DNA of 64,000 bases from Candidatus Uhrbacteria bacterium (GTDB lineage: Bacteria; Patescibacteriota; Patescibacteriia; JACRJV01): the NCBI GenBank assembly GCA_016215325.1, contig JACRJV010000007.1:3728-67727 (forward strand), in the 5' to 3' direction. Below, one piece after another: positions 165 through 17,744 of this stretch. Position 1 is the first letter of the stretch, and each line of letters opens with the position of its first letter. Both the position numbers and the translations under genes were made by a program. A model generated the notes under the pieces. That model was not told where the DNA came from. It ran no database searches and saw only the letters and a program-made list of their open reading frames with translations.

Positions 165-168
165 GCCA

Positions 169-2616
169 CTAGGGTGTTACGGGGGGTTCTGGCAGAGGAA
201 TTTTTTCTTTGAGCGTACTGGATCCCGTGGTTCCCCGTCCCCCTTCTGTTGCGAGCTTGGTCACTTCCTCGATTTTCTTCATGAGCTGGGGGTTATTGGC
301 ATTATTCTTGAGGATCTCGTTGAGCTCGCTCAACTCATCGTCATACCGCTTCTGATCTTCGTAGAGCTGGGCCAAATACCACCGCGCATTGGCGTAATCG
401 CTTTTGGCCGCGATCACCGCATTCCATACTTTTTCGGCAAGGTCTTTCTGATTATTCTTGTAATAGAGGGCGCCGAGTTGGATGTGCAGCGGCAAATCTC
501 CCGGTCGCGTTCGCGAAAGCCCTTCCACGCGCTTGATGGCTTCGGAGAGTTTCCCGCGCCGCTCTTCGATGATGGCCATCTGGAAGTGCGCGCTCGCAAA
601 GCCCTCGTCCAGCTGCAATGCTTTCTTCAGGAGATCCTCGGCATCAATCAACGCATCGCTTATTTTCTTCTGGTTAGCCTTCTCTCCAGCCGCCCCTTCA
701 CGGTCCGCGCGCGTTACATAGATTGCGGCCAAGTCGGTCACATGAGTCGGATTATTGGGTTCGAGTTCGCGCAATTTCTCTAAGGATTTGATCGCTTCGT
801 CTTCCGCGCCTTCGACAAATGGGCTTAATTGCTGATAGAGTCCCGCCAATGCTTGCCAATTTGCGGCGCTGACGAGGTTTAACCGCGTCGCCTCACGGCC
901 GGCAACAATGGTATCACGAGCGAGCAACCGCAACTGGGTCATCCGTTCTTCGGAGTCTTTTTTATTCTGGAGCGTGTCCTGGAATTTGGCCAATTGTAAC
1001 GCGCCAACGGTACGGAAATACACATCACTCCAGGGGTACAGATTAATTGCGCGAGCAATCGCCGCACGCCGATCATCCAACCCGGCCCTCTGGTCTCGCG
1101 CGGCCAAGAATGCCCAGTCTGCCGCAATGCGCCGGTACGAAGCCCAGGTTAACAGCGGCGCCGATAAAAAGACAATGCACGCAACACTTAACACGGTCAT
1201 CCGAAGCCGCGGGGAGTCGGCCAAATCCCAAGTCTTAGACGTTGCCGACGGCGCCAATGCCCATAAGAGTCCCGCTGTCAGTAACCCAAACACGAACTCC
1301 AAGAGTATGGTGGTGGGCAACAACGCCAACAGCGCCAGCCCCACGGTCCAGCCAGATCCCAGCGTTATGAGGATCAGCCATCGTCGCTCAGCCGCGTGCC
1401 GGAACACGGCCTTGAGCATCGGGACGATGATCGCAAATAACCAGAATAACAGCCCGAGTACCGTTGCAACGATCCCGAGTTGTGCGAGATGCGTCCACAG
1501 CGACGAGCGGCTCCGATCAAACAGCACGCCAAAACTTTGCCGCAGTGCTTCGGCAGTATGATATTTATTCACATCAATCGAGAACGTCGACGGCCCAGAC
1601 CCAAACACCGGTGAATCCTTGAGAGTCTCTTGCACCACTGTCCGGCTTTCGCTCCAGCTCATAATAAGGATCGGTGGCAATCTTTGGACAAGGCGCGCCG
1701 GTATCATCACAAAAAACGCGGCCACCACAATCACGGCAAACACTACCACCCACCGATGGGTTTTGGTGAGCTCCTGCGCCCGGCCGATGATAATCATGTA
1801 CAGCAGGAGTTCGCTCACGGCCACCACCACCCAAATGAGCTTGATCCCAATCACAGCAATCACGCCCATCGAGGTGACAATGGTCGCAAGCAGCAGTACG
1901 GATACAGCGCTATGCCCTGCCTTTTGGAGGTTTTTAAGCGACCCATGCTCTCCGAGGCCCAAAATAAAAAACTTAGCGCTGGCAAGGATCAACGTGATGG
2001 CCGAAAATACGGCGAGCCCCACAATGTCGCCGGCCGGGGTAAACAGCGCCGTGCGGGTTGCTTCCCAGGGCAGCACAAAGACGCCGGCAATACCCAACAG
2101 GAACAATACTGATGTCACCAACGATGACAAAAGCAGCGCGAACAACGCCCCCAACCATTGCTGTTCATTCAATTCCTGCAGCGCCACCAATCCAATCAAT
2201 GCCACGGCAATCATGGTGGCCAAACTCCCCCATTCCTGTCCGTAGTCGCCCAGGAGGCTCGTGAACGGATGGACGCTCATGACAGTGCTGGCAATCGCCG
2301 CCACAAAAAACGCTACGATCCAACCCCATCCGCGCACCGGTAGCCACTGGAACTTCTGCTCCAATACCATCCGCGCCAACCAGAGCGTTGTCACCAGCAC
2401 CACGCCGACCAGTAATAGGCTTTGTTTGGGTAATTCAAACGCGTCGCTCATGCGGCCGCCGAAGGTCAGCGGCGCAAAAAAAATAATCGCGTACAGGATC
2501 CAGCGATTGACAGCGGCGAGAATCGTGGCGGGTTGAACACGTGGCATACTGCGATAAAGAATCCAGATGTTGTATATCAGATATTCGAGACGTGCTCTCC
2601 AATATCCAATATCCAA
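169..2616 (-). CDS. O-antigen ligase (Wzy_C)-like polytopic membrane protein with C-terminal TPR repeats, 815 aa. The true start is possibly an internal Met.
   Basis: The N-terminal ~450 aa has more than 10 hydrophobic helices. It includes a loop of the form ...SLWTHLAQLGIVATVLGLLF, which resembles the Wzy_C 'aHNxyLqxlaElGiiG' region. The C-terminal ~350 aa is helical and shows TPR-like periodicity (e.g. ...ASAHFQMAIIEERRGKLSEAIKRVEGL..., ...ANARWYLAQLYEDQKRYDDELSELNEIL...). No search was run to confirm. Confidence 0.5.
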   Translation of the reverse strand: MDIGYWRARLEYLIYNIWILYRSMPRVQPATILAAVNRWILYAIIFFAPLTFGGRMSDAFELPKQSLLLVGVVLVTTLWLARMVLEQKFQWLPVRGWGWIVAFFVAAIASTVMSVHPFTSLLGDYGQEWGSLATMIAVALIGLVALQELNEQQWLGALFALLLSSLVTSVLFLLGIAGVFVLPWEATRTALFTPAGDIVGLAVFSAITLILASAKFFILGLGEHGSLKNLQKAGHSAVSVLLLATIVTSMGVIAVIGIKLIWVVVAVSELLLYMIIIGRAQELTKTHRWVVVFAVIVVAAFFVMIPARLVQRLPPILIMSWSESRTVVQETLKDSPVFGSGPSTFSIDVNKYHTAEALRQSFGVLFDRSRSSLWTHLAQLGIVATVLGLLFWLFAIIVPMLKAVFRHAAERRWLILITLGSGWTVGLALLALLPTTILLEFVFGLLTAGLLWALAPSATSKTWDLADSPRLRMTVLSVACIVFLSAPLLTWASYRRIAADWAFLAARDQRAGLDDRRAAIARAINLYPWSDVYFRTVGALQLAKFQDTLQNKKDSEERMTQLRLLARDTIVAGREATRLNLVSAANWQALAGLYQQLSPFVEGAEDEAIKSLEKLRELEPNNPTHVTDLAAIYVTRADREGAAGEKANQKKISDALIDAEDLLKKALQLDEGFASAHFQMAIIEERRGKLSEAIKRVEGLSRTRPGDLPLHIQLGALYYKNNQKDLAEKVWNAVIAAKSDYANARWYLAQLYEDQKRYDDELSELNEILKNNANNPQLMKKIEEVTKLATEGGRGTTGSSTLKEKIPLPEPPVTP

Positions 2617-2656
2617 TCTCTAATATCTCGTTATTGGGGATAATTCCACTATAGTA

Positions 2657-2684
2657 TACCACAAAACGGTCAGTGTTACTGACC
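2657..2684 (-). terminator. Intrinsic-terminator-like hairpin just downstream of the giant gene
   Basis: The minus strand reads GGTCAGT-AAC-ACTGACC followed by GTTTTGTGG. The 7-bp stem sits at 2668..2684. The giant ORF stops at 2691. Confidence 0.45.
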
Positions 2685-2690
2685 TTATAA

Positions 2691-5600
2691 TTACTCCTGC
2701 GCAACTGTCTCGGGTTGTGCCGGTGCTGGGGCAGACTCGGTCGCCGCGGCCTGTTCTACTGCCGCAGGCTCTGACTGGGCAGGTGCGGCTTCTGCGACAG
2801 GTTCGGGAGCGGGTGTCGGCTCTGGGGCTGGTGTTGGAGTAGGTTCAGAAGACGCTGTTGGCGTCTCTGTTATCGGGGGTTCCGGCAGCGCGGGCGTTTC
2901 GGTCACAACCGCTGGCTCTGGAGCGGGTTCGACCTCTGAAGCTTGAGAGGGGGGTTCCTCTATTTTTTTCTCAACCGGTGTTGTGGGGGGATCTTCCTCA
3001 ATTTCTTTGAGTGTAATGATCGGAGCAGGGGCCGACGCGCTCTGCTGCCGTACTTGCTGCTGCGATTGTTCCCGAATTCCCTGGATTTCCGCTCGCAAGA
3101 AGCTCAACTCTTCTTGGCTTGATCGCGTAGTCTCACCGGTTAAGCGATCGAGTCGCTGTTCAAACTGTTCCATGCGCTCGAATAATTTTTCGATCTGTGT
3201 TTGTTGGGCTTTAACGGCCGACAGTGTAAACGTGGCGAGTTTGTAGATGTCAACGCCTTTGCCGTCGATGCTCAATACTTCCAAGGGCGCTTCTTCGGCA
3301 ATGAGTCCCATCCGCAACGGCGCGGTGGCAGATTCTTCTTTATAGTGATACCGCGCGATATTCACATTGGCGAGCTTGGCCAAAATCGTCTTTTGATCCC
3401 CTTCGGTCAAATACTCAATGTCTTTCTTGGCTTCTTTTGTGGAAATATTCACAAAGCTCGTGGCGGCCACGTCGCCCATGACATGCAGCTTGTACTGGGG
3501 GTCTGTTGTGCCAATGCCGATATTGCCGTCATCGTCAAACGCCATTTGGCTTGATTCAATCCGATACTGCGGATTAAACCACACGACGATCTTGTTATCC
3601 GGTGATTGAGCGTTGTAGCTTTCGAGCGCCACGCCAACGGTCCATCCGCTGGTCTTGGCCTTCATGCCAACTCCGGCAATAGATGAAGTTGTAATCCGAT
3701 CACCGGCCGCAATGTCGCCGCCTTCGAGATTGACTTTTACCGGGATGCGCCCAGCTAGCACGATGGGTACTGGGTGTTCTTCTGTCGTGAACACCCCTTC
3801 ACCTAACACTTCTGAAAACGGATTAGTGGAAACGACACCCGTAATTGGAGCGTACACGGCTTGTGACTTTGCAACAGATGCTTTTGAACTTTGGCCGATC
3901 CGTTCTTGGACAAATTCTTGCGCCTCGCCGCTTATGGCCACAATATCGCCTGCTTCGAGCGTGCCGTCGCTCCCGTAGTACTCGGCCATGTCAGATCCGC
4001 CGGCGTTACAATCCCCAATGTTCACGAGCCCGGTTGCGGCATCGGCTCCGCTTTGGCAGACCCGCTGCGTATACGTTGTTGTATCATCAAGGTTGATTTG
4101 GAACGCAGTCAAACTCCCGGTCAAAATCGCGGTTCCTCCACTATCCTTAATGTTCACCGTGCCGTCGGAAGCATTATCAATCGTCTCGGAGTTTTGGAAT
4201 TTAATATCGTTAGTGATCCCAGCCCCACCGGTATTCGCAATCAATAACGCGTCGGTCACAACGGTAGAAGCGGGACCGGTTACGGCTGTATCAGCATTAT
4301 TCAAAACGAGCAATGCGCTCACGAAATTATCCGTAGTATTCGTTGTTGGCTGATTTTCAATCAACATGGCATATTCCACATTGTTGCTGACACTCGGCTG
4401 GTTGGTGAATTTGAAATAGTTTCCCACAATGGAGTTGGCTCCGCTTACTGCAGTGCTCGTTTGATTATTGTTGACGGTGAATACGCTCCCAGTCCACGAA
4501 TTACCGCTCTCTCCAGTGTCATTGCCAAAGGTCGCGGTCACAAGAGCAAGATTTAAATTACCGTTAGCGGCAAGCGACATTGGAGTGTTGTATCCATTAC
4601 CAAACTGATTATAGTCAAACCGAAGTTGGCTACCGCCCCCCTCTTGATTGGCGCTAAAGACCCTCCAATCCTGCGAATACGATGCGAGCCCTGGGCCTGG
4701 GTTCACCCACGAACTTCCATGAAACGTTAACGCGGGAGAATACTGCGCATCGTTTGTCGCCGTCGAAGCGGTGGTATTTTGCAACGTGATCCCCTGCACA
4801 GGTGTCCTATCCACCGAAGTGTCATTGGCGTTATCCGAAAACGCCACATTAACGCTTAAATTGGTATTATTGCCGATCTGGGTCACCATCCGTGTTTCAC
4901 CAGAAACCGTGATGCTGTCTCCAACCACCAACTCGGTAAGGAATGCAGTACCAACCCCAGTTACGTCCGTAGACGCTGTTGGGTCAATGCTTCCGGTTAA
5001 CACCGAAGTGGTAGAGCCGGTAGTAAAGACCCCTGAACCAACGACATCCAGTGCCGCCGTTGGCGTGGTGTCACCAATGCCCACATAGCCTCCGGCAAAA
5101 ATGGCTGTATAATTCGTGTCTGCCCCGGTGGGGGATGCCACATATAATCCGGTCTTCGTGGAGGTCCCGGTGGTGGTACTGGTTCCATCGGCAATATATA
5201 GGCCATAACTATTGATCGTTCCATTGGTTGTGAGGGTGGCGGTATTGGCAATATATTCGCCATACACATTCACCGTACTGCCGGTTGAGGAGGCAGTGGA
5301 TGATGGCGCAAGGTACGAGCCATACACGTTGGCTGTGCCGCCCGAGGATGCTCCAGACGTGGCTGGTTGAGAGCGAAGGCCATACACAGTACGCGTTCCT
5401 GTTGATATTGCGCCGGTGACACTCGTGGCAATATCCAAGGCCGCAATCGTATCGGCTGTGGTGGAGTTAGAAGTGACAGTCTGGTACAGACCATAGCCAT
5501 ACTTAGCGGCATTTCCGGTAAGCGCCAGAGAGCCGTAGTAGCCATAATCGGTGTTGGTATTGGCCGTTGAATCAGTCGCGGTGATGTTGAGGCCGTACCC

Positions 5601-8600
5601 CGTGACACCGCTGCCGGAGAAATCCGGCGCGCCATAGATGAGCGCCGCGCCAGAGCCGATGTCAGACGCCAAATTTACAACATGACTCGTAACACCGGTG
5701 GTGGTGGAGCCGGTAACACGAATGGCGGTGTCCCAGCCGCTGCCAATCTTCACCGCAGTTTCGGTGGCCGCGTTCGCGGTGATATCCCCAATATTCAACG
5801 CATTATATGTCCCCCCTTGAGGACCCGCAGGAACTAAATTAATTAAATTAATGGTGTCCCCGGCAGAACCATCAGAAGAAACGCTCGCGACCCGCAGTCC
5901 ATCCGCATTGATGGTGCCGTCCGTATACGCCGCGTTCCCTCCGCCGACCGAAATGTTCACCCCTCGCGAATTCACGGTGACACCGGCGACATCCGCTGAC
6001 ATTTGATTGGTAACATCGATGCCCGTCAATGTTTTAGTCCCTGAACCAGAGGCTGGTGTCCCAGGGATTGTTAATGACAACCCGGTAATCGCCGATGTGT
6101 TATCAAGAGTAAGATTTGAACTTAAATCCATTGCCATCCCCGTTATTGCTCCGCTTTGCGTGGTCGCAGAACCAAAGTCCGCGTTGATGAGCGAGCCAGT
6201 CGTCCACTCGGTTTCCAAGGCAAAATCGAGGAATGTTCCAGTGGTCGTGGGGCTAATGGTCAGCGCCCCGCTCATCCCCAGCGTCGTCACATCACTCACG
6301 GCCCCTGCGTTAATATCAATCCCATTAATGCTTTCATCCGTGGCTACCGTGAGTTGCCCAGAGGAGTTGATATAATATGAAGATGAGTGGAACTGTATGT
6401 CTCCTTTGGTGGAGTTAGAGGTGGAGATCAACAGAAGGTCATCGCCACTGCCAGAACCACCGACAAGATCTCCTTGGGTGCCATCAGCAAACAGAGCATA
6501 GTTGGTGGTGGCGCCAGAGGCGGAGAAGTAGCCACCGTAATTAGATGAGGTGGTTCCGGTGTTAGCAACGGTGGAATAGACTCCATACGCCGTGTGCGTG
6601 GCATTGCTGTTGGTACCAGAGCGAGTAAGTTTCAAAAGTGCGGTAGAGCCAGACCCACCGCCCACGGTAGAGGTTGATTCGATAAATACTCCGGTGCCCG
6701 TGGTCAGCCCGTCGGCAGAAATCTGAAGCGCGTCAGCCGTTGAAACAGAGTCAGCCGTAATCTGAGCCGCATCCGTGGTGTTGCCGGTGTAGGTTTGGAC
6801 GAAGGTGCCGGTGCCGGAGGCTAGGGCAAAATTCGCATTGGCATCAATAGTCGTACCGCCGAGCGTAACAGTGCTGTCAACGTTCAAAGTAGATGTGGTG
6901 GAAATAGCACCATCGGCAGTGATGGCTCCGATGCCGCTCATGTCCCCGGTGGTGTTGATGTCCCAGTCAGAGGAATCGATCGCAACAGTATCGCCGCTAT
7001 CGCCGAGATCAACTTGCCCATTGGCATCCAACGCTCCGGCAAGAGTGAGTCCCCCAGTGGAAGTAAAATCCGTACCAGCGTTTCCGATGTTTACGAGAAT
7101 GTTGGCACTAAGATCAATGCCGGTATCCCAACCAGAACCGATACTCAAAGCGGTTTCGGTGCCATTGCCAGCAGTGATATTGCCAATATTAATTCCATAC
7201 AATGTTCCCGCGCCCACTCCAGCAGCCGCGAGGTTGATAATATTTTGGGTCCCGGCGGTGGTGATCGTGCCATTGACAAGACGGATGCCGTTGGCCGTCA
7301 CAGTGTCGCCGGTATTCTGGGTAATGTTGGGCATGGTGATGTTGGCGCCTCGCCAGTTGATGATCGCGGCATTGGCTCCATCGGTAACAGACAGAGCGCC
7401 GGCAGCCGAGATATTGTAGCCGGTGTATGTGGTAGTGACGGCGGAGTCTGCGGCAGTCAAGGCATTCATCACAATGTCTGTGCCGGTGATGTCGAGATCT
7501 GCTGCTCCGGTTAAGTTCGTATCAAAATCAAATTTAAGGCCAGTGATATCCCCTCCAGATTGCGTGGTGACATTGGCAAAATCAGCATTAATAAGGGTGC
7601 CTTGGGTCCATTCAGTTTCGAGTTGATAATCCGTAAATGTGCCGGTGGTGGTTGGAGCGATGGTGAGCGCCCCGCTCATGCCCAACGTCGTCACATCACT
7701 CACGGCCCCAGAGCTCACATCGATGCCGTTGAGGGTTTCATCGGTCGCAAACGTCGCTTGTCCCGAAGAGTTGATAATGTAGCTGGACGAATGGAATTGA
7801 ATGTCGCCCTTGGTCGCATTGGAAGTGGAGACCAAGAGGAGATCATCGCCGGAACCTGTGCCGCCGACCAGATCGCCCTCGGTTCCGTTGGCGACGAGCG
7901 CATAATTCACGATCAATCCAGAGGCAGTCGAAGCCGCGAAGTACCCAGCAATGTTGGTACCGCTGGTGGCGTTGACATTAGTAACCGAGGAATAGATTCC
8001 ATAGGCTGTGTGAGCGCTATTGGCGTTAGTGCCAGAACGGGTCAGTGTGACGAGCGCGGTGTCATCTGATCCCGTACCTACTGTGGAAGTTGAAATAATA
8101 TTCAAAGCATTGCCTGTGGTTAAGCCACTGGCCGTGATCTGGAGCGCATCGGCAGTGGTCACAGAGCTCGCAGTAATCTGCGCCGCATCGGTGGTATCGC
8201 CAGTAAAAGTCTGCACAAACGTGCCAGTGCCAGAGGCAAGGGCAAAATTATTGTTCGCCGCTACAGTTGTGGCACCGGTCAAGGAGACGGGTCCGGTAAG
8301 GGTGATCGTTCCGCTGCTGCCGCCAATGCTAAACCGGCTTGAGCTGGTGTTTACATCGTAAATTTCAAACGCGTTGGCAATTGTGATCGATGAACCTGCG
8401 CGCCAATCGCTCGGGTAGCCGGTTTTAAATTCTATCGTCGCCGGATTTCCAATATCCGTCTTATCTAAGATAAGCATGTTATAGGAAGAGCTACGATCTC
8501 CACCCGAGTCTTTGATAACGAGGTTTGTGGTTGGCGTTGTCGTCCCAATACCAACGTATCCGGAACCTGGGCTTAATACCAGATCATCGCCAGAACTCGT

Positions 8601-11600
8601 AACAATTTCAACTGCGGTGTTGGTATCTTCGTCCAGATCAAATGTTAATGTATTCGTGCCATCGGAAAAAGAAAGCTCGGTGTCTGTAGAATTGACGATT
8701 GTCTCGCCATTTCCCAGAGTGAGCGTACCGTCCAATCGTGTGGTCCCCGCATCCACCCACAAGGCATAGGCATTGGTGATGGTGGCAGGCCCAGCGCCCG
8801 CGCCCGTAGGCGCATTGGCAATATAGAGTGATGCCGCATTGGTTACCGTAAGAGTAGAGGCAGCGGAGAGTGTCGATTGAGCAATATTCAGAAGATTAAA
8901 CCCCGTGGCAGTCGTGATATTTGTAGAGCCAGTGATGGTGGCGGTTGCCGCAGAAAGATCGATGCCGTTCCAAGTGGCGCTGGCGCCTGAGGCAATAGTT
9001 TCGTTACCAGAAATCGCAGGATTTGTGATGGTGGCAGTATTGATCGCAGGACTAGTTAATGTTTTGTTTGTAAGAGTATCAGTAGTCGCTCGACCGACAT
9101 AGGTGTCCGTTCCTTGGAAGGTGATTGTTGTGGAATCCGTACCAGCGAGAGTCAAAGAGTTACTCGCCGTCAGCGTCTTACCATCGGCGATCGTGAGTGT
9201 GCCAGTGGATGCTGTTACTGTAAGTCCGTTGATTGTCTTATTCGTCAGCGCCTCTGCACCCGCAAGAGTGGCGAGCGTACCGGTCGTTGGAAGAGTAACG
9301 TTTGTTGCTCCGGTTGTTGTGAGTGTAAGAGAGTTCGCCCCAGAGGTAATGAGTGCTCCGGCAGTGGTGAGGTTCCCAGCCAAGTTAATCGTGCGAGCCG
9401 CATCGTTGGTGGTGATTGTCAGTATTCGGCCAGCTGTAAGATTCTCAGTGTTGGCAAGAGTGAGATCAAACGCGCCGGTGCCGGTGGAACGAATGCCTAA
9501 GGACGTGAGTGCGTCAGCAGTGCCGCCGTTGATATCTGGACTGGTCAGCGTTTTGTTCGTCAATGTATCGGTCGTGGCACGGCCAACTAGCGTATCAGTT
9601 CCGGTGGGAATCGTGATGGTGCCGCTATTAGAGATGGAGGCGATCACTGGGGTTGTGAGGGTTTTGTTGGTGAGCGTATCGGTTGTCGCGCGGCCGACAT
9701 ACGTGTCTGTTCCCTGAAATGTGATGGTTGTCGCATCTGTTCCTGCCAATGTGAGTGAATTGCTCGCGGTTAAGGTCTTCCCATCCGCGATCGTCAACGT
9801 GGCCGAAGTGGTCGGCGCGGTAATGGCGACCTTATTAATGGATGTTGCAGAAGCAACGCCTAAAGTCGGAGTAACGAGGGTCGGAGACGTCGAAAAGACG
9901 AGATTCGTGCTCGTGGTTCCTGTTGTTCCGCCCGCAGAGGAAAGATAGTTCAACTGTGTTCCCGTCGACGTAACCGATGTTGCTCCAAGTGTAAACGGTG
10001 TGGGAATGGTGACCGTGCCGGTGAAGGTGGGGCTTTCTAAAAATGCAAATGTTTTCCGTGCTGCGCCGGTCGTGATGGTGCCGTAATACGCATCGGTCAA
10101 GAATTCCACGGCCCCGGCTTCGGCAGTGGTCATCAGTGACCCAGAGTTAAACTTGAGCGGCGCTGTGGAAGCGCTGGTGGTGCCAGCTTTGAGGTGAAGG
10201 ACAGCAGTGGGGGTTGTGACCCCGATGCCGACATTTCCATCAAAACGCACAGCCCCATCATCCACCCATAACGCATAGGCATTGGTGATGGTGGCTGGCC
10301 CAGCGCCTCCGCCCGTGGGGGCATTGGCAATATATGCTGTTGCGGCATTCGTCACAGTTAATGCTGAAGCTGCCGAGAGTGTTGGTTGGGCAATATTCAA
10401 CAGATTAAACCCAGCGGCTGTCGTGATGTTGGTGGAGCCGGTGATGGTGGCTGTGGCCGCAGAAAGATCGATCCCGTTCCAGGTGGCACTCGCACCAGAG
10501 GCGATCGTTTCGTTGCCAGAGATCGCGGGGTTGGTAATGGTAGCGGTATTAATCGCAGGACTGGTCAATGTCTTGTTCGTGAGCGTATCCGTGGTGGCTC
10601 GACCGACAAGCGTATCTGTTCCGGTGGGGATCGTGATAGTACCGGAGTTGGAAATGGAAGCGATCACGGGAGTTGTGAGTGTTTTGTTGGTGAGCGTATC
10701 CGTCGTCGCCCGGCCAACATACGTGTCTGTTCCTTGAAAGGTGATTGTTGTCGCATCTGTTCCTGCCAATGTGAGTGAATTACTCGCAGTCAACGTTTTC
10801 CCATCGGCGATCGTGAGGGTGGCCGATGTTGCCGGCGCGGTAATCGCCACCTTGTTGATTGAGGTTGCGGATGCAACGCCTAGTACGGGGGTAACAAGCG
10901 TCGGGGTTGTGGCAAATACCAGCGCTCCAGAACCGGTTTCATCGGTGAGTTGTCCTGAAATGCCCGAAGATGCGGTAGTAGCGGTCACGGCACTCGTGCC
11001 ATTGCCGATTAAGATGCCTGAGAGCGTCCCCGCTCCAGTACCTCCTTGAGCAACCGCTAATGCAGTGGTTAATCCCGAAATCGACGTGATGTCCGAATTT
11101 GCTCCCGATGCGGCGGCGCCTAAATTTGCTCGCGCATTCGCGGCGGTTGTTGCGCCAGTGCCGCCGTTAGCCACTGCAATCGTCGTCCCATTCCAGGTCC
11201 CGGCCGTGATCGTCCCAACCGTCGCAATGTCGGTACCCACCAGTTTTGAAGCCGCAATCGAGCCCGTGAGCATGCCATTCGTGACCGATCCGGTATCACC
11301 AGTGGTGACAATAGTACCACTGACATTGGGAATGCTCAGCGTTCGGGTTGCCCCCGCGCTTACACCGGAGATTTGGAATGCGAGTTGCTTGGTTGTGTCG
11401 CTATCGTCTTGGATAACGAAGTTTGTATCTTTCAACGTCGCTGCGTTCGTATTATCAATCGTCTTGTTGGTGAATGTTTCACTACCGGCAAGGGTCGCAA
11501 TAGTGCCGGTGGTCGGCAAGGTGAGGGTCGTCGCCCCCGTTGTTGCGAGCGTTAGGGCATTCGCTCCGGATGTCGTGAATGCCCCCGCAAGCGTGAGATT

Positions 11601-12377
11601 GCCATCGAGATTAATCGTGGTGCCCGCTCCTTGAATTGTTTTGTCCGCGCCCGTCACCGTCAATGTCCGCGATGTGGTGCCCCCGGCAACAGTGAACCCG
11701 TCCGCGGCCGAGGCAAGTGTCAATCCATTGACGGCGCCGCTGGTCACAGTGCCGGTGCCAGAACTTCCCACCGTGAGCGTGCCGGCCACGGTTGCATCAC
11801 CTTCGGCATCCACTTTGAATCGGCTCGTGCCATTCACCGCAATGCCAAAGAGCGTGTAGTTGGCGGTGACGCTCGCGGGGTTTATGTAGACAACACCTTG
11901 ACTCACGCCCGTTCCCGACGGGGTGCCAGTCAACGTAAAATTTCCGGAAGAGCTGGTCACGGGGACAAATGCAGAAAGGCCGCCAATGGCCGATGTTTCT
12001 AATCCATCGAGCCGATCGGTGTTGACGGCGTACCCCGATGCCCCAATCCGGCGTCGTGGCGAGAGCGTTTCGCCATTGACTTGGACCTCGAGATACAATG
12101 TGTCGTTATCGAACAACGTCACCGGGAATGCGTTTTGTGATCCGCCACCGGCAGATGTATCACCTAAGAGCACGCTAAACTCGCCACTGGCCACAGCCAC
12201 ACTCATGGTCGACGACGGACTCGTGCACCCATTCGCTCCCGTGCCTTTCGCAGACCATTGGCAGGTGCCGGACGTTGCGGCGTCGTAAATCACAAATGCC
12301 ATGTTGTAGTTGGCATCGCTTACCGCCGAACCGCTGGAAGTCTTGAGGACCCCCTGGTAACTCATGACATGGGGCAC
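2691..12377 (-). CDS. Giant repeat-rich, tail-fibre-like surface protein, 3228 aa as called from a GTG start. The C-terminus carries an intramolecular-chaperone (peptidase S74-like) domain plus a Pro/Glu/Thr/Ala-rich tail.
   Basis: This is a single uninterrupted 9.7-kb ORF. It is extremely rich in Gly, Thr, Ser, Ala and Asn. Modules of the form ...TDTLTNKTLTTPVIASISNSGTITIPTGTDTLVGRATTDTLTNKTLTSP... are reiterated. Some copies are identical at the DNA level, for example around 9.1-9.7 kb versus 10.4-10.8 kb. Two ~250-aa paralogous blocks begin ANNNFALASGTGTFVQTFTGDTTDAAQITA... and ANANFALASGTGTFVQTYTGNTTDAAQITA... Near the N-terminus there is a motif NGGTGATTAANARANLGAA like those seen in phage tail fibres. 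The C-terminal region reads ...DDDGNIGIGTTDPQYKLHVMGDVAATSFVNISTKEAKKDIEYLTEGDQKTILAKLANVNIARYHYKEE..., which matches the architecture of the 'chaperone of endosialidase' / peptidase S74 domain. A coiled coil and a PAPEPTPAPEP low-complexity tail follow. No signal peptide appears after the called start (see the mini-ORF at 12408..12488). Confidence 0.85.
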   Translation of the reverse strand: MPHVMSYQGVLKTSSGSAVSDANYNMAFVIYDAATSGTCQWSAKGTGANGCTSPSSTMSVAVASGEFSVLLGDTSAGGGSQNAFPVTLFDNDTLYLEVQVNGETLSPRRRIGASGYAVNTDRLDGLETSAIGGLSAFVPVTSSSGNFTLTGTPSGTGVSQGVVYINPASVTANYTLFGIAVNGTSRFKVDAEGDATVAGTLTVGSSGTGTVTSGAVNGLTLASAADGFTVAGGTTSRTLTVTGADKTIQGAGTTINLDGNLTLAGAFTTSGANALTLATTGATTLTLPTTGTIATLAGSETFTNKTIDNTNAATLKDTNFVIQDDSDTTKQLAFQISGVSAGATRTLSIPNVSGTIVTTGDTGSVTNGMLTGSIAASKLVGTDIATVGTITAGTWNGTTIAVANGGTGATTAANARANLGAAASGANSDITSISGLTTALAVAQGGTGAGTLSGILIGNGTSAVTATTASSGISGQLTDETGSGALVFATTPTLVTPVLGVASATSINKVAITAPATSATLTIADGKTLTASNSLTLAGTDATTITFQGTDTYVGRATTDTLTNKTLTTPVIASISNSGTITIPTGTDTLVGRATTDTLTNKTLTSPAINTATITNPAISGNETIASGASATWNGIDLSAATATITGSTNITTAAGFNLLNIAQPTLSAASALTVTNAATAYIANAPTGGGAGPATITNAYALWVDDGAVRFDGNVGIGVTTPTAVLHLKAGTTSASTAPLKFNSGSLMTTAEAGAVEFLTDAYYGTITTGAARKTFAFLESPTFTGTVTIPTPFTLGATSVTSTGTQLNYLSSAGGTTGTTSTNLVFSTSPTLVTPTLGVASATSINKVAITAPTTSATLTIADGKTLTASNSLTLAGTDATTITFQGTDTYVGRATTDTLTNKTLTTPVIASISNSGTITIPTGTDTLVGRATTDTLTNKTLTSPDINGGTADALTSLGIRSTGTGAFDLTLANTENLTAGRILTITTNDAARTINLAGNLTTAGALITSGANSLTLTTTGATNVTLPTTGTLATLAGAEALTNKTINGLTVTASTGTLTIADGKTLTASNSLTLAGTDSTTITFQGTDTYVGRATTDTLTNKTLTSPAINTATITNPAISGNETIASGASATWNGIDLSAATATITGSTNITTATGFNLLNIAQSTLSAASTLTVTNAASLYIANAPTGAGAGPATITNAYALWVDAGTTRLDGTLTLGNGETIVNSTDTELSFSDGTNTLTFDLDEDTNTAVEIVTSSGDDLVLSPGSGYVGIGTTTPTTNLVIKDSGGDRSSSYNMLILDKTDIGNPATIEFKTGYPSDWRAGSSITIANAFEIYDVNTSSSRFSIGGSSGTITLTGPVSLTGATTVAANNNFALASGTGTFVQTFTGDTTDAAQITASSVTTADALQITASGLTTGNALNIISTSTVGTGSDDTALVTLTRSGTNANSAHTAYGIYSSVTNVNATSGTNIAGYFAASTASGLIVNYALVANGTEGDLVGGTGSGDDLLLVSTSNATKGDIQFHSSSYIINSSGQATFATDETLNGIDVSSGAVSDVTTLGMSGALTIAPTTTGTFTDYQLETEWTQGTLINADFANVTTQSGGDITGLKFDFDTNLTGAADLDITGTDIVMNALTAADSAVTTTYTGYNISAAGALSVTDGANAAIINWRGANITMPNITQNTGDTVTANGIRLVNGTITTAGTQNIINLAAAGVGAGTLYGINIGNITAGNGTETALSIGSGWDTGIDLSANILVNIGNAGTDFTSTGGLTLAGALDANGQVDLGDSGDTVAIDSSDWDINTTGDMSGIGAITADGAISTTSTLNVDSTVTLGGTTIDANANFALASGTGTFVQTYTGNTTDAAQITADSVSTADALQISADGLTTGTGVFIESTSTVGGGSGSTALLKLTRSGTNSNATHTAYGVYSTVANTGTTSSNYGGYFSASGATTNYALFADGTQGDLVGGSGSGDDLLLISTSNSTKGDIQFHSSSYYINSSGQLTVATDESINGIDINAGAVSDVTTLGMSGALTISPTTTGTFLDFALETEWTTGSLINADFGSATTQSGAITGMAMDLSSNLTLDNTSAITGLSLTIPGTPASGSGTKTLTGIDVTNQMSADVAGVTVNSRGVNISVGGGNAAYTDGTINADGLRVASVSSDGSAGDTINLINLVPAGPQGGTYNALNIGDITANAATETAVKIGSGWDTAIRVTGSTTTGVTSHVVNLASDIGSGAALIYGAPDFSGSGVTGYGLNITATDSTANTNTDYGYYGSLALTGNAAKYGYGLYQTVTSNSTTADTIAALDIATSVTGAISTGTRTVYGLRSQPATSGASSGGTANVYGSYLAPSSTASSTGSTVNVYGEYIANTATLTTNGTINSYGLYIADGTSTTTGTSTKTGLYVASPTGADTNYTAIFAGGYVGIGDTTPTAALDVVGSGVFTTGSTTSVLTGSIDPTASTDVTGVGTAFLTELVVGDSITVSGETRMVTQIGNNTNLSVNVAFSDNANDTSVDRTPVQGITLQNTTASTATNDAQYSPALTFHGSSWVNPGPGLASYSQDWRVFSANQEGGGSQLRFDYNQFGNGYNTPMSLAANGNLNLALVTATFGNDTGESGNSWTGSVFTVNNNQTSTAVSGANSIVGNYFKFTNQPSVSNNVEYAMLIENQPTTNTTDNFVSALLVLNNADTAVTGPASTVVTDALLIANTGGAGITNDIKFQNSETIDNASDGTVNIKDSGGTAILTGSLTAFQINLDDTTTYTQRVCQSGADAATGLVNIGDCNAGGSDMAEYYGSDGTLEAGDIVAISGEAQEFVQERIGQSSKASVAKSQAVYAPITGVVSTNPFSEVLGEGVFTTEEHPVPIVLAGRIPVKVNLEGGDIAAGDRITTSSIAGVGMKAKTSGWTVGVALESYNAQSPDNKIVVWFNPQYRIESSQMAFDDDGNIGIGTTDPQYKLHVMGDVAATSFVNISTKEAKKDIEYLTEGDQKTILAKLANVNIARYHYKEESATAPLRMGLIAEEAPLEVLSIDGKGVDIYKLATFTLSAVKAQQTQIEKLFERMEQFEQRLDRLTGETTRSSQEELSFLRAEIQGIREQSQQQVRQQSASAPAPIITLKEIEEDPPTTPVEKKIEEPPSQASEVEPAPEPAVVTETPALPEPPITETPTASSEPTPTPAPEPTPAPEPVAEAAPAQSEPAAVEQAAATESAPAPAQPETVAQE

Positions 12378-12407
12378 GCCAACGGCCGCTTGAGTGCGAT
12401 AATTATA

Positions 12408-12488
12408 CTAAAACGCGCCAGCAACCGCTGGGATAACGAGAACCAGGAATAGGAATTTTACCAATTGTGGATGTTTGACCGACGACAT
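12408..12488 (-). other. Orphan signal-peptide mini-ORF (26 aa, MSSVKHPQLVKFLFLVLVIPAVAGAF). It is in the same frame as the giant gene and separated from it by one TAG.
   Basis: ATG at 12488. The N-region has Lys/His, followed by a hydrophobic core and an AGA/AxA-like site. The stop is TAG at 12408..12410. Ten sense codons (YNYRTQAAVG) then lead directly into the GTG at 12377 of the giant ORF. The distance of 111 nt equals 37 codons, so the two are in the same frame. Confidence 0.5.
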
Positions 12489-12541
12489 ATGCTATTGCGT
12501 TTTTGTTTCGGTTTTCTTCGTCTCTTTGAACGGTGCTGGAT

Positions 12542-13150
12542 TTACTGCGCCACTTCCCGCAGTCCACTGATGAACAATTCTGTGTTGACCGTAATCGCAT
12601 AAACAGCCAGATCAATCTGGTCACGAGCTGAACGCCATTCTTCTTGCAAATCTTGCCGCGTTGACGCCACATCCTCGACGGACGATTCCGCCACAGGCAA
12701 TGCTTCGCTCACGGCAACCAACTCTTCAACGATATTCTGCTTGACCGCAGCCGCCGCCTGCCCAGGCTGCCAACTGGTCTTTGCCCAGGCGCGCATCACT
12801 TCAACTTGTTTGCTCGTCTTCTCAAATGTTTGTCGCACCCACTGTTGCACTGTTTGCCAGAACCCTATAACGCCAGACTTGATGCTGCTCCCTGCTTGTC
12901 CGATCGCAACACCGACCGCTTGGACCCTCACAACAATGTGCTGTTGCGTTCGCAACAAGGTATGTTGGATTCTTTGAATGCGCGATGGGCGCTCCGGCTC
13001 ACTGACCTCCTGCGCAGCAGAAGTCTCCGATGGTTGTCCTGTTTTACGTTCAGCGGATTTCTCATTTTCGGATTGATCGGTCTTCTCCGGTGGTATCACG
13101 GGCTTGATTTCTTGCTCAACACGAATACTGCCCGATGATTCAGTTCTCAC
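12542..13150 (-). CDS. Hypothetical protein (202 aa) with a charged N-terminus and no signal peptide
   Basis: The ORF shows a 4-nt ATGA overlap with the upstream gene, which suggests translational coupling. I recognised no motif. Confidence 0.45.
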   Translation of the reverse strand: MRTESSGSIRVEQEIKPVIPPEKTDQSENEKSAERKTGQPSETSAAQEVSEPERPSRIQRIQHTLLRTQQHIVVRVQAVGVAIGQAGSSIKSGVIGFWQTVQQWVRQTFEKTSKQVEVMRAWAKTSWQPGQAAAAVKQNIVEELVAVSEALPVAESSVEDVASTRQDLQEEWRSARDQIDLAVYAITVNTELFISGLREVAQ

Positions 13151-13749
13151 CGCAAGAGGTTTCGGCTCGATCGCAATTTCCGCCCGGGGATGCGCGCCCC
13201 AAAAAGTTGTTTCACGGGTTTTGTGACCGCTTCAATGGCACGTTCAATCACCCCAGAGGTCTCGGGCTGTTGTTGCGCATCCGGGGGAACCGAAGTCCCG
13301 GATGATGCGGGTATCGTTGTAGGCGCGGCTTGTTCTTGCTGCGGTAGGAGGGGCGCGTCCGTTGGTTCTTGTTGCGGTGCGCCGCCGGACGGCGGTGGAG
13401 TCGTCGTGGTTGGTTGTTGTTGTGGGGCGACTCCCGTATCAGCCGGGGGCGCTACTGCCTGCGTCCCTCGCGCTGTGCGCGTCGTGGTGCTGCCCGAACC
13501 TGTTGATGTTGCCAGTGGAGCAGCGGTCTTGAAATTCGTTGAACTCCCCCCCTGTGCTGGGGCAACGCCCCCTCGGGAACCCGATGTTGTGCTGCCAGAA
13601 GCAGAAGACCCGGATGGGCCAAACGAAAAAGAGTCGATGAGAATAAAGCTTGTGGAAGTAGACGTGTCTGCGCGTACGTCAGAAGCTGCTATCCACAAGC
13701 CTGATACCCAAACGACTCCAAGGATAATTATGAAGAATGGGGCCTTCAT
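13147..13749 (-). CDS. Secreted low-complexity Ser/Thr/Pro/Gln-rich protein (200 aa)
   Basis: The N-terminus MKAPFFIIILGVVWVSGLWIAASDVRA looks like a signal peptide. The rest is S/T/G/P/Q-rich low complexity. It is the first gene downstream of a strong promoter. Confidence 0.5.
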   Translation of the reverse strand: MKAPFFIIILGVVWVSGLWIAASDVRADTSTSTSFILIDSFSFGPSGSSASGSTTSGSRGGVAPAQGGSSTNFKTAAPLATSTGSGSTTTRTARGTQAVAPPADTGVAPQQQPTTTTPPPSGGAPQQEPTDAPLLPQQEQAAPTTIPASSGTSVPPDAQQQPETSGVIERAIEAVTKPVKQLFGARIPGRKLRSSRNLLR

Positions 13750-13822
13750 AAAGCTCTTTTTTGTATTTATTTTTCGATTTTTTGCACTTTCCTCTACTGC
13801 AACCGCCGATTTTTATGTATTA

Positions 13823-13851
13823 ATTATAGCATTTTTTAGGTAAACTTTCAA
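13823..13851 (-). promoter_or_regulatory. Sigma70-type promoter driving the secreted-protein / giant-protein gene string
   Basis: The minus strand reads TTGAAA-17 nt-TATAAT, i.e. a perfect -10 with 17-bp spacing, about 70 nt upstream of the ATG at 13749. Confidence 0.55.
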
Positions 13852-13899
13852 TGTTCGGATGTCCACAGGTCGAAATGGATTTTTTCGCTTTTATTGAGG

Positions 13900-14196
13900 T
13901 TAATTTTCTGGGTACACCTTCTTCCCGTCTTTATTATACAAGAATATGGCCAGCGTGGGGCACGATTCTGCCGAAGCTTTGAGCGTTTCGTCGTCCACCG
14001 TGAGCCATTCGGGCTTAATGATCGCTTTGGCGTCGTTGTCCAACTCATACACATCGGGAGCAACGGCTATGCAACTGGCTGCCCCAATACAGAGCTCTCG
14101 ATCGACAACAACACGGGTAAATTGCCGACCGCTGGATGTCGTAATAGTCTCTTTGTTGAGAGTAATATTATTAGAATCAGAGCGAGAGGCATCCAT
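13900..14196 (-). CDS. Ferredoxin, single-cluster CxxAxxC...CP type
   Basis: The sequence ...RELCIGAASCIAVAPDVYELDNDAKAII...ESCPTLAI matches Pyrococcus/Bacillus-type mono-cluster ferredoxins, which have three Cys and a CP motif. Confidence 0.55.
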   Translation of the reverse strand: MDASRSDSNNITLNKETITTSSGRQFTRVVVDRELCIGAASCIAVAPDVYELDNDAKAIIKPEWLTVDDETLKASAESCPTLAIFLYNKDGKKVYPEN

Positions 14197-14269
14197 AAGT
14201 ATTGAGCAAGATAAGCATTACGTCGTAGCTTAATTTACTTATTTTACTTATCTCGCTTATCTTGCTCGC
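14195..14269. repeat. Copy A of a ~40-bp palindromic element (AGCTTAATTTACTTATTTTACTTATCTCGCTTATCTTGCT) with a truncated inverted partner
   Basis: The full unit is at 14227..14269. The partial inverted arm ATAAGTATTGAGCAAGATAAGC is at 14195..14216. The element abuts the fdx start codon. Related copies are at 35871..35947 and 39981..40074. Confidence 0.7.
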
Positions 14270-14273
14270 TGCC

Positions 14274-14861
14274 CTAGAAGGGCAGCGTCAAATTTAGGCT
14301 TACTTGAGCAATTTTTGGCATTTCAGGCAAAAGAATGGCAAACTCTCGGGTCGAACCAACGTCTGGGTACCGGAGCTTTTTGAATTTTTGGGCGTATTCG
14401 TAGATATCCCGAGTGATCCGCACATCATCCAGGCAGTATTGTTTAATTTTCTCGATCTCCCCTTGCTTGTACCATTCCACCGCTTGCAGGCCATGGCTAC
14501 TCTTTGCCGTTCCTAATGTTCCCTTCGCAAGATCATCTAATTTGAGGCGGAATCCTAACCGCTCTTTCACCACTTCCAATAGGTCGAGTTGCGGGAGTTT
14601 CGATAAATCGCCTCTATAGTAATTATTTAGCACGGGAATGTCAAACGCTTTGCTGTTATACCCAATCACTCGATCGGCGTGTTCAAACATAGGCCACATC
14701 TTGGGGAGCTCTTCCTCTGTAAATGTTGAATACCGATCATATTCATATTCGTAAACCCCCACAACGGATACTTTGAGCCCCCGATGGCCTAATGCGCCGA
14801 CGTCATTGAATGTGTTTTGAGTTTCGATATCAAAGACAATCTCTTTACTCATAGGATTCAT
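14274..14861 (-). CDS. DnaQ-like (DEDD) 3'-5' exonuclease. The ORF is open to 15026, but the likely start is MNPMSKEIVFDIETQ.
   Basis: An Exo I-like FDIETQ motif and an Exo II-like IGYNSKAFDIPVL motif are present. The upstream 55 codons of the ORF look non-protein-like. Confidence 0.55.
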   Translation of the reverse strand: MNPMSKEIVFDIETQNTFNDVGALGHRGLKVSVVGVYEYEYDRYSTFTEEELPKMWPMFEHADRVIGYNSKAFDIPVLNNYYRGDLSKLPQLDLLEVVKERLGFRLKLDDLAKGTLGTAKSSHGLQAVEWYKQGEIEKIKQYCLDDVRITRDIYEYAQKFKKLRYPDVGSTREFAILLPEMPKIAQVSLNLTLPF

Positions 14862-15293
14862 CGGCACTACGAAGTAAGAATGTATACGAATATACGAATC
14901 GTCTCCCCAACGATCGATCGTCAACGCTGCGGTTCGTATAATTCGTAATGCATCGTACTTCGAAGGGGTATGCAATACGCTGCAGTATATCAAACTCTCA
15001 CACAAACAAACAGCCCCGACTGACATCGGGGCTGTTTGTGGAAAAGTGCTGGGTGAAACGGAACCGATCGCGATTATTCGCGGACAGCGACCCAGACGAC
15101 TTCACGGCGCATCATCCAAAGTTGGATGAAGTGGTGGAGCATAGCTAGAGTGTTAATGAACATTTGTTTTTGTTTTCCTGGGGCTTATGGTCGCGCCCAG
15201 GAGCGACCTTTCAAAAGCTGGATGTCCCCCCTCCGGGACATGAATTTACTCTATCAGTATAGCACATTTTTTGGGGGTTGTCGATGGGGTTCG

Positions 15294-15368
15294 TGGTGCG
15301 CGTGCCTGGGATCGAACCAGGGACCTTCTCATTATCAGTGAGACGCTCCACCACTGAGCTACACGCGC
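15294..15368 (-). tRNA. tRNA-Ile (anticodon GAT), with CCA encoded
   Basis: The sequence is GCGCGTG-TA-GCTC-AGTGGTG-GAGC-G-TCTCA-CTGATAA-TGAGA-AGGTC-CCTGG-TTCGATC-CCAGG-CACGCGC-A-CCA. The arms form a clean cloverleaf. Confidence 0.9.
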
Positions 15369-16051
15369 GCAATCGCTTCTTGATAACAATCAGTCATTGC
15401 TTTCATTGCCATCATTATTTTTCTTTTCAGTCCAGTGCTTGGGACATATACCGCACAGGTGCCGTGACCATGACTGTATGAGTAAGAAAAACTCGATGGA
15501 CGCAACGTTCTGATTTGGTGTTTATAAAACTGACTCTCATCAATTCCTGCCACATTCTCCCAAAACTTAACCTCTTTGGAAATGTCCATCGATTCATAAA
15601 GGTGGAGCTGCAAACGAATCTGCCGTCGACTGATACCATAGAACTTCCCTATCCAAGCGATAAAGAATCGGATTACACCGGGGTCGGTATTAGCAAGGTG
15701 AACTCGAAAAGGATTCCGTTTTTCGCCTTCGCCTAAATATAATACAAGCCCTGCGACAAAGCAAGACTCTGTTGAGAGGTGTTTGAATTGATCAACATAT
15801 TCCAAATACACGTTCTGGTCAGCCTGTCTCTTCTTTTCACGCATGGCATTTCTATATCGCTCTCGGCTGGCCTCACCGCTGAGCCAATTTTTCCTTCGTA
15901 ACTCTAGTATTTTTTCTTCGGTAAGCGGGAATTCTCTCAACCAGTAGCTCAGGGTACTTTTTGGTACGCTCAATTTTTTCATTATTGCAGTGTAACTCAT
16001 CTCTTCTTCTACTCGCAGTCGCACTGCTTGATTGCGAAGTTCAGCGTTCAT
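15359..16051 (-). CDS. HTH plus LAGLIDADG-type homing-endonuclease-like protein (230 aa), encoded in the 16S-tRNA-Ile spacer
   Basis: There is an N-terminal HTH (...SYTAIMKKLSVPKSTLSYWLREF...) followed by FVAGLVLYLGEGEKR, a LAGLIDADG-like motif. The stop codon overlaps the first 10 nt of tRNA-Ile. Confidence 0.5.
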   Translation of the reverse strand: MNAELRNQAVRLRVEEEMSYTAIMKKLSVPKSTLSYWLREFPLTEEKILELRRKNWLSGEASRERYRNAMREKKRQADQNVYLEYVDQFKHLSTESCFVAGLVLYLGEGEKRNPFRVHLANTDPGVIRFFIAWIGKFYGISRRQIRLQLHLYESMDISKEVKFWENVAGIDESQFYKHQIRTLRPSSFSYSYSHGHGTCAVYVPSTGLKRKIMMAMKAMTDCYQEAIARV

Positions 16052-16504
16052 AAAGATACGATGATCAATGAACCATTGTCATTATATATTAGCATAACCT
16101 TTTCTAGAGTACAACTTTTTTACCGATTTACTAAACTTCGTATGGTGAAGAGTTGTCGATACAAAAAGCCGCCCTTGTGAGGCGGCTTTCGCTTGCCCCG
16201 CAGCGATTGCTCAGGGCGAAGTTGACTCAAGAAACGTGATAGCAATGACGTCACCCGATCATTTGATCGGGTCATTCGTTGGTGGAGTACTGCCGCCCTC
16301 AATGCGCGCTGAAAGAGTACAGCAGTATTCCACCAACAAATGTCGACTTGGACTTTCGTCCAAATTACTCCCTAGAAAGGAGGTGATCCATCCACAGCTT
16401 CCGCTACGGATGCCTTGTTACGACTTCGTCCCTGTCACCAATCCTACCTTCTGACGGTTGTCCGCCATTCGGGTATTATCGGCTCCCTTGACGTGACGGG
16501 CGGT

Positions 16505-17550: not shown

Positions 17551-17583
<33 letters not shown>

Positions 17584-17695: not shown

Positions 17696-17744
<49 letters not shown>

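Follow-up and report, generated by a model that had tools for sequence, protein, structure and literature searches.

A candidate surface-fibre locus of Candidatus Uhrbacteria that pairs a phage-type fibre gene with the gene of a ligase-like membrane protein

Patescibacteria, the bacteria of the candidate phyla radiation (CPR), are mostly uncultured and tiny, and many of them are thought to be attached to host cells; to our knowledge, little is known of how they recognize and hold their hosts beyond type IV pili. Here we describe a locus in a 64-kb window (the whole stretch of DNA that was analysed), which is part of an 84-kb contig from a member of this group, a Candidatus Uhrbacteria bacterium. 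Four open reading frames (ORFs), all on the minus strand, are at issue: ORF A (13749..13147, 200 amino acids), ORF B (13150..12542, 202 amino acids), a giant ORF for a putative fibre (12377..2691, 3228 amino acids) and a gene (2547..169, 792 amino acids) for a membrane protein ending in tetratricopeptide repeats (TPRs), which is called the membrane/TPR protein below. The locus is preceded on its 5' side by genes for a ferredoxin, an RNase-H-like exonuclease, tRNA-Ile and 16S rRNA. The first-pass annotation had seen a cell-surface appendage locus here, an idea that is supported here; it overlooked the phage-type self-cleaving chaperone domains of the fibre as well as two inactivating lesions.

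The fibre ORF of 3228 amino acids, 27% of which are Ser or Thr, is counted from the first GTG after an in-frame TAG (2691..12377). This agrees with the giant fibre-like protein described earlier, except that its true start had been missed together with the TAG. The actual 5' end (12408..12488) consists of an ATG at 12488, in frame with the 3228-codon ORF and 37 codons 5' of the GTG at 12377, a signal peptide (MSSVKHPQLVKFLFLVLVIPAVAGAF) and the TAG itself (12410..12408), which is codon 27 and separates the signal peptide from the rest of the fibre; the whole gene thus has ~3265 codons. The first 200 residues after the GTG (11778..12377) form a conserved N-terminal domain, 82.5% identical to that of the giant protein in a relative (locus L085) and 35-48% identical to the N-terminal region of the fibre genes found 5' of membrane/TPR homologues elsewhere. 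In the fibres of loci L014 and L022, this domain comes directly after the signal anchor. A Thr-rich modular shaft follows (5721..10922), with repeats at residues 486-720, 826-953 and 1049-1222, and with residues 1340-1754 matching 1805-2219; no tandem DNA repeats were found in the gene. While both ends of the fibre are conserved in the L085 giant protein, its central part has no BLAST match there at E 1e-10. A variable centre between conserved ends is, at the level of sequence, a pattern typical of receptor-binding proteins. A diversity-generating retroelement targeting the fibre was considered and rejected, as no reverse transcriptase was found and a direct-repeat scan of positions 1-26000 gave only the fibre's own repeats. 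Far from the fibre gene, at 25612..26016 on the minus strand, lies a 134-amino-acid ORF whose product shares 35% identity with a 23S_rRNA_IVP/bAvd-like four-helix-bundle protein of locus L086; neither a reverse transcriptase nor a template/variable repeat pair was seen nearby.

The C-terminal part of the fibre carries two predicted intramolecular chaperones in tandem. The first, at residues 2796-2945 (3543..3992), is of the Peptidase_G2 type. A profile of 51 homologues matches the C-terminal domain of phi29 gp12 (3gqh at 5.7e-4, 6qz9 at 9.5e-4, and 3suc) and the D4 chaperone of the tailspike Dpo31 (1.4e-4), and 19 of the 51 match PF11962 (best E 2.5e-8), which the window copy taken alone does not. 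The predicted cleavage site is S2795/D2796-M-A-E, within the motif GGS/DMAEYY (the slash marks the bond between residues 2795 and 2796), with its D, A and E conserved to at least 90% across the 51 sequences; this S/D-x-A-E aligns with residue 1 of the released phi29 gp12 fragment, which begins DFAEYF (3gqh). The second chaperone, at ~2951-3074 (3156..3527), is a Peptidase_S74 domain (Pfam PF13884, matched over residues 2981-3030 with E 1.5e-5 and, at 25.7 bits, above the cut-off of 22). It shares with the K1F endosialidase and T5 pb1 (PMC4690869) a GIGTxxP lead-in (here GNIGIGTTDPQYKLHV), a Ser-x4-Lys motif (S2979-x4-K2984, reading S2979-TKEA-K2984) and a subsequent coiled coil, which begins here after about residue 3040, and the spacing of its motif is the same in P0021, P0040, L003 and L014. 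Domains of the S74 and G2 types drive the folding of trimers and then cleave themselves off (PMC4690869), from which we infer that the mature product would be a trimeric fibre with roughly 2800 residues per chain. By composition, the last stretch (residues 3110-3228; 2694..3050) is a low-complexity tail rich in Pro, Glu, Ala and Thr, and a Pro- and acid-rich C-terminal end was seen directly in the fibres of L001, L003, L014 and L022. In contrast to the chaperones of phages, both types thus occur in tandem in a single cellular, putatively Sec-exported protein of >3200 residues and are followed by a long Pro/Glu/Ala tail. Also unlike in phages, many relatives have two G2-type copies, which stand in tandem in the fibres of L010, L015, L016, L018, L025-L029, L033, L035, L037, L038, L041 and L079, and at least two of the fibres, those of L014 and L022, have an S74-like motif (SSQRFKENI) in the middle of the protein with several domains after it, an order that differs from that of the window fibre.

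Since domains of the S74 and G2 types are characteristic of the tail spikes and fibres of phages, the giant gene might be a tail-fibre gene in a prophage or phage remnant. In line with this, it matches Bacillus phage tail fibres (31-38% identity) and one PHROG tail family, and the NCBI labels its homologues 'tail fiber domain-containing protein'. However, this likeness is confined to ~110 of the 3228 residues, around the S74 domain, and the shaft has no detectable phage homology. Moreover, there is no other phage gene nearby, whether structural or for packaging; the locus is flanked by the 16S rRNA, tRNA-Ile, ferredoxin and RNase-H-like exonuclease genes and by housekeeping genes, and gene order is kept upstream in the relative (loci L085/L086), where exonuclease, ferredoxin, a fused A-B gene and the giant gene follow each other. 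A Sec signal peptide or anchor is present in all relatives inspected, and dozens of Patescibacterial species keep the fibre gene paired with the membrane/TPR gene on the chromosome. That the gene belongs to a prophage or phage remnant therefore seems highly improbable.

The membrane/TPR protein had been described as an 815-residue Wzy_C-like polytopic protein with C-terminal TPRs. Its polytopic nature, its TPRs and a distant homology to Wzy_C proteins have stood, while the length (815 residues from a TTG) shrinks to 792, with the real start at the ATG at 2547 (also the NCBI start), and neither a Pfam Wzy_C match nor a catalytic His is found. The protein is 100% identical to P0001 of Candidatus Uhrbacteria, which the NCBI names "tetratricopeptide repeat protein". 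According to the structural model and the family alignment, residues 1-485 (1093..2547) make up a membrane domain, in which 13 helices are predicted and a large loop (residues 285-348) bears GSGPxTF and FDRxRS motifs. The C-terminal TPR domain (residues 486-792, plus stop codon; 169..1092) matches Pfam TPR_19, TPR_16 and others, and Foldseek and PDB searches match it to OGT, SPY and CTPR proteins. In the AlphaFold model (pLDDT 77), nine helices are followed by the loop (of low confidence), four helices and a TPR superhelix, amounting to a 12-helix core with the big loop between helices 9 and 10, plus a 13th helix. Since the loop charges follow the positive-inside rule on this topology, we infer that the large loop and the TPR domain lie outside the cell. 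Several residues are strongly conserved among 84 family members: K41, G316, G318 and G358 (84/84), Q42 (76/84) and E38 (66/84). In the close subfamily R345 never varies, and three residues before it lies an R/K column (69/84), but no alignment was obtained to WaaL, whose loop arginines R215 and R288 are essential, or to PglL.

The relationship of this protein to known families emerges from intermediate sequences. Its close homologues (P0001-P0009 and P0011) are annotated with TPR families and lack Wzy_C (PF04932), whereas the weaker relatives P0012-14 pass the Pfam Wzy_C cut-off (33.6-63.9 bits vs 31.7). When the family profile was compared with P0012-14 using hhalign, it matched over the whole protein (100%, E 3.8e-56) and over the membrane domain alone (99.9%, E 1e-36, 451 columns). 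By this profile evidence, the membrane/TPR protein is a divergent relative of the Wzy_C+TPR proteins (O-antigen ligases and O-oligosaccharyltransferases), and its annotation as a "tetratricopeptide repeat protein" conceals a ligase-like membrane protein.

The relationship between fibre and membrane protein was addressed by a synteny survey, in which one genome per GTDB species was scanned with a membrane/TPR-protein profile, returning 80 loci. A fibre-domain gene was defined by a match to the N-domain, the G2-type or the S74 domain within 4 kb on the same strand, at loci with enough flank. Such a gene lies upstream of the membrane/TPR homologue at 39 of 74 loci and downstream at only 2 of 76 (Fisher p = 4e-13); for the closer homologues, it lies upstream in 28 of 37. 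Often the two genes are separated by -4 to +140 nucleotides. The genes found 5' of membrane/TPR homologues have ~700 to >3200 codons and often end 4 nucleotides before the start of the homologue or overlap it, and the ORF directly 5' frequently has a Pro- and acid-rich C-terminal end. In the complete fibre copies inspected, the same N-domain comes after an initial signal anchor. The titles of most records name Patescibacterial groups (Uhrbacteria, Falkowbacteria, Yanofskybacteria, Parcubacteria and others), while those of the remainder read only "bacterium", Gammaproteobacteria, Saccharibacteria or, once, Vicinamibacterales. The label 'uncultured Gammaproteobacteria bacterium' on L007-L009, L015, L017, L026, L027, L029, L035, L036 and L041 looks doubtful. 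Judged by gene order, the fibre and membrane/TPR genes are a conserved pair across Patescibacteria and are functionally linked. The synteny check that had been proposed for all four genes at the locus thus comes out in favour of this pair, whereas ORFs A and B have no detectable homologue among 84 loci. Many contigs (L001-L043) begin or end inside the adjacent fibre gene, so that repetitive fibre genes seem to break metagenome assemblies, their sizes and frequency being underestimated. In at least two relatives, L022 (50-5848) and L014 (99-5618), a second very large gene (~1840-1930 amino acids) lies just 5' of the fibre gene, the L022 product being cysteine-rich with repeated modules and C-terminal hydrophobic segments, which suggests clusters of giant surface genes.

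The two ORFs upstream of the fibre gene turn out to be one. ORF A, previously described as a secreted Ser/Thr/Pro-rich protein, does have a signal peptide and a body rich in Ser, Thr, Pro, Gly, Ala and Gln (66% of residues) among its 200 residues, but it is only the N-terminal half of a split gene (12542..13749). The 202-residue ORF B, which had been taken for a separate protein coupled through an ATGA overlap (the overlap is in fact GTGA), is its out-of-frame C-terminal half. When 1.84 billion representative proteins were searched exhaustively with ORF B, the only matches were ORF B itself and one relative, P0079, in which a single ORF of 414 amino acids matches ORF A with its first half (sharing the signal peptide and a TSFILIDSFSFG motif) and ORF B with its second. 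When P0079 was aligned to the window by tblastn, residues 1-179 were found in frame +3 and residues 195-372 in frame +2; the former frame (13749..13147) encodes the signal peptide and the low-complexity linker and the latter (open from 13231, annotated 13150..12542) a helical C-terminal half. Homology switches frame just past KQLFG, which places the frameshift at ~13190..13205, in or beside the homopolymer runs (T5, G4) of CTTTTTGGGGCGCGC. A programmed frameshift was considered, but no canonical slippery heptamer was seen at the site by eye, which favours a simple indel at the homopolymer runs instead. By alignment, ORFs A and B (NCBI MBI5134816.1 and MBI5134815.1, each a 'hypothetical protein') are thus one gene for a secreted, low-complexity, lineage-specific protein of ~400 amino acids. 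It accompanies the giant gene in one relative only and is outside the conserved core.

The same relative sheds light on the TAG in the fibre gene. Its giant gene runs uninterrupted (MSLLQKPQFVKSLLLLLVLPAVLGALWFNYQTQ; ...LGALWFNYQTQ) and has TGG at the TAG codon in the DNA alignment, so that two adjacent genes of the window each have a single-base disabling lesion when judged against an intact relative. Stop-codon reassignment was rejected because TAG ends many ordinary genes in the window, that of the membrane/TPR protein included. A pattern scan of metagenomes for further alleles of the TAG codon returned only the relative that was already known. Could the locus be a decaying remnant, with the split gene and the fibre gene being pseudogenes in an apparent operon without present function? 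The two lesions are independent, TAG is a normal stop in this genome and no hydrophobic segment follows it, so that a product restarted at a GTG or ATG would stay in the cytoplasm. However, 3228 codons are open after the TAG. The repeat modules within the gene (8712-10922) are 88-96% identical in protein vs 78-81% in DNA (e.g. 96% of amino acids vs 81% of nucleotides) and their ratio of non-synonymous to synonymous substitutions (dN/dS) is 0.04-0.07 with a dS of about 1, which indicates strong purifying selection and a gene that was functional for a long time. It follows that the lesions are either very recent or errors in the assembled consensus. Indeed, both are single-base (one base change, and one indel in or beside the T5 and G4 runs) in a metagenome-assembled genome and could be consensus errors or minority alleles. 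Probably, then, the module was recently inactivated in this genome or the assembly carries two errors. A remnant as such strikes us as a possibility not far short of even odds, and it concerns the state of this copy rather than the nature of the module. As for the repeats themselves, the protein has been kept nearly identical, and the duplicates are either old or selected to diverge at silent sites.

The near-consensus promoter reported previously upstream of the split gene is borne out as a sequence feature. This sigma-70-type site (13823..13851, minus strand; TTGAAA-17-TGcTATAAT, score 11/12) would serve the split gene and the giant gene. With its TG extension it is the best of 19 promoter-like sites in 1..16500, where 13.4 are expected by chance, and in the alignment with L085/L086 the positions of its -10 and -35 boxes are taken by TATACT and TTGTTT. 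The terminator predicted after the giant gene has fared less well, since a 7-bp hairpin (GGTCAGTAACACTGACC; 2668..2684, minus strand) is present 3' of the stop codon and is terminator-like (fold z = -3.1 vs shuffles) but its U-tract is weak (GUUUUGUGGU). Next to it lies an extended -10 promoter for the membrane/TPR gene, TGTGGTATACT (2653..2663, minus strand), a motif that occurs five times in the window with at most one mismatch vs 0.36 expected (2653-2663, 15256-15266, 16932-16942 and 40642-40652 on the minus strand and 35412-35422 on the plus strand). The membrane/TPR gene thus very likely has its own promoter, to judge from this motif, and with the hairpin this means that the string is not one simple operon; of the four-gene operon-like string once proposed, the conserved unit is the fibre gene and the membrane/TPR gene only. 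The TGTGGTATACT motif looks like the organism's usual form of promoter and also drives the fused upstream gene in L085. In the 5' untranslated region of the split gene (13750-13822; 4930-5002 in L085), the last ~15 nucleotides before the ATG (AAAAGAGCTTT) are identical in the window and L085/L086, and a GGAAAGTGCAAAAA(A)TC stretch was noticed by eye in all three leaders though the proteins are only 39-48% identical; this conserved leader may be a regulatory or ribosome-binding element.

The best overall explanation, to which we give a probability of roughly 0.55, is that this is a chromosomal cell-surface fibre locus of Candidatus Uhrbacteria, composed of the fibre and a His-less Wzy_C-relative partner. 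The following scenario can be outlined. The strong promoter would drive the lineage-specific secreted protein of ~400 amino acids, frameshifted here, and then the fibre gene. The fibre would be exported by Sec and trimerise on its C-terminal chaperone domains, which would then cleave themselves off as in phage tail spikes, leaving a long surface fibre for attachment. The outward-facing loop and TPR domain of the membrane protein would act on the exported fibre, the likeliest action being O-glycosylation, in which a lipid-linked glycan would be transferred en bloc to the Ser/Thr-rich surface of the fibre, as is done by WsfB, PglL and PilO. Such O-glycosylation of the fibre is our tentative first choice, plausible but unproven, because the nearest known systems are Wzy_C O-oligosaccharyltransferases, some of which have TPRs and whose gene usually lies beside that of the target.

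The comparison with these enzymes is instructive. WsfB of Paenibacillus alvei, WsaB of Geobacillus stearothermophilus, PglL and PilO/TfpO have, like the membrane/TPR protein, a polytopic membrane domain of the Wzy_C superfamily, and WsfB and PglL also carry C-terminal TPRs (PMC2943079), although the TPR domain is much longer here, at ~300 residues. Genes for O-oligosaccharyltransferases usually adjoin those of their targets (21 of 31), a pilin or an S-layer protein (PMC3643930), as the membrane/TPR gene adjoins the fibre gene; the likely targets here are also Ser/Thr-rich surface proteins, on a monoderm-type envelope. In contrast to all four, the membrane/TPR protein fails Pfam Wzy_C and has no His at the position of WaaL H338 and PglL H349, its partner is a phage-type fibre rather than a pilin or S-layer protein, and no glycan locus is nearby. 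A further parallel is offered by eukaryotic TMTC1-4 and PMT-type GT-C O-mannosyltransferases, which combine a multi-pass membrane domain with TPRs on the far side and modify Ser/Thr of large adhesion proteins. The outline is the same but no sequence similarity was detected, and the parallel is an analogy only.

Several observations weigh against this explanation. The loop motif of Wzy_C proteins contains an essential His (H338 in E. coli WaaL, H349 in PglL; PMC3643930). Where the canonical relative P0013 has AHNEFL, with the His equated to these two, the window protein has SRSSLW, and in the 84 family members the column of the catalytic His holds A, T, S, L, V or K but never His, the adjoining Asn being Ser in 76 of the 84. 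The HMM searches proposed to classify the protein recovered its TPRs but neither Wzy_C nor PMT: Pfam and NCBIfam saw TPRs and no other family, and for the membrane part (residues 1-516) Pfam gave nothing at E <= 10, whether Wzy_C or PMT/PMT_2. Foldseek found TPR matches only with the full-length model, and with a second model (residues 1-485, loop of low confidence) no significant PDB match and no WaaL-like structure (best E 0.012, TM-score ~0.15), a result that does not disprove such a fold; in sequence searches, neither the family profile nor the membrane domain of the canonical relative matched anything in the PDB. The window contains no genes for glycan synthesis (glycosyltransferase, flippase or initiating transferase), the remainder being housekeeping genes. 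The Pro/Glu/Ala tail, which is the most PglL-like acceptor sequence of the fibre, lies beyond both predicted self-cleavage sites and would be lost from the mature fibre. As to the pairing, about half of the homologue loci, many of them distant, have no adjacent fibre gene, and in the close relative L004 (81% identity) an ATPase gene takes the place of the fibre gene; in the window, the hairpin and the separate promoter argue against obligate co-transcription. Finally, the TAG and the frameshift may prevent this copy from yielding any exported fibre, and the two lesions have weakened the interest of the finding in this genome.

The family-wide loss of the catalytic His, the lack of nearby glycan genes and the position of the PglL-like tail beyond the cleavage sites make docking a serious rival. 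The membrane/TPR protein would then be a non-enzymatic docking, assembly or retention factor whose outward TPR domain binds the fibre, for instance by its acidic, Pro-rich tail or its chaperones, and keeps or places it at the membrane during trimerisation and cleavage. The missing Pfam Wzy_C match, the tight gene pairing with its often overlapping stop and start codons, the frequently acid- and Pro-rich end of the upstream ORF (the sort of sequence that TPR clamps bind) and the resemblance of the TPR part to the substrate-binding TPRs of OGT and SPY are all in line with this. However, the polar and Gly residues conserved in the predicted outward loops (E38, K41, Q42, G316 and G318) are typical of an active or ligand-binding site, and a 12-helix Wzy_C-like core that is kept over wide divergence would be needless for a pure TPR anchor. 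On the whole, a docking factor seems to us unlikely in itself but nearly as likely as O-glycosylation of the fibre, which keeps its tentative priority.

Each component of the locus is of a known kind. What is new is that a cellular protein has G2 and S74 chaperones in tandem, that a ligase-like family lacks the His and that the genes of the two form a conserved pair; we found no literature linking Patescibacteria to S74/G2 intramolecular-chaperone fibres or to O-antigen-ligase/TPR proteins. The fibre and its membrane partner are therefore concrete, testable candidates for the interface between Patescibacteria and their hosts, and the family of the partner may represent a Wzy_C-superfamily branch whose chemistry has changed or whose role is not enzymatic. 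A bolder and, in our view, rather doubtful extension is that these genes form a phylum-wide two-gene module, in which a domesticated phage receptor-binding fibre, exported by Sec and equipped with tandem self-cleaving chaperones, would be modified or mounted by a His-less, TPR-fused offshoot of the ligases through a mechanism different from that of WaaL and PglL. Swappable central modules would set the host cell to which the bacterium is attached, and the knock-out alleles would reflect ongoing selection on this attachment. For annotation, the consequence is more immediate: two "hypothetical proteins" are the halves of one gene and the real start of the giant gene lies 5' of an in-frame stop.

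Some features of the surrounding DNA may be added. The 16S rRNA gene (18708..17225, minus strand) is followed by a ~1.85-kb spacer and the tRNA-Ile gene (15368..15294, minus strand). This spacer contains a match to the group II intron D1-D4 RNA family (16900..16817, 57.5 bits), a 131-amino-acid ORF and a 230-amino-acid helix-turn-helix ORF. The window is without a 23S rRNA gene, and the rRNA genes look unlinked. At 20747-22174 on the plus strand, opposite to the minus-strand genes around it, lies the gene of a 475-amino-acid protein with four fibronectin-III / purple-acid-phosphatase-N-type repeats, which is likely another surface protein.

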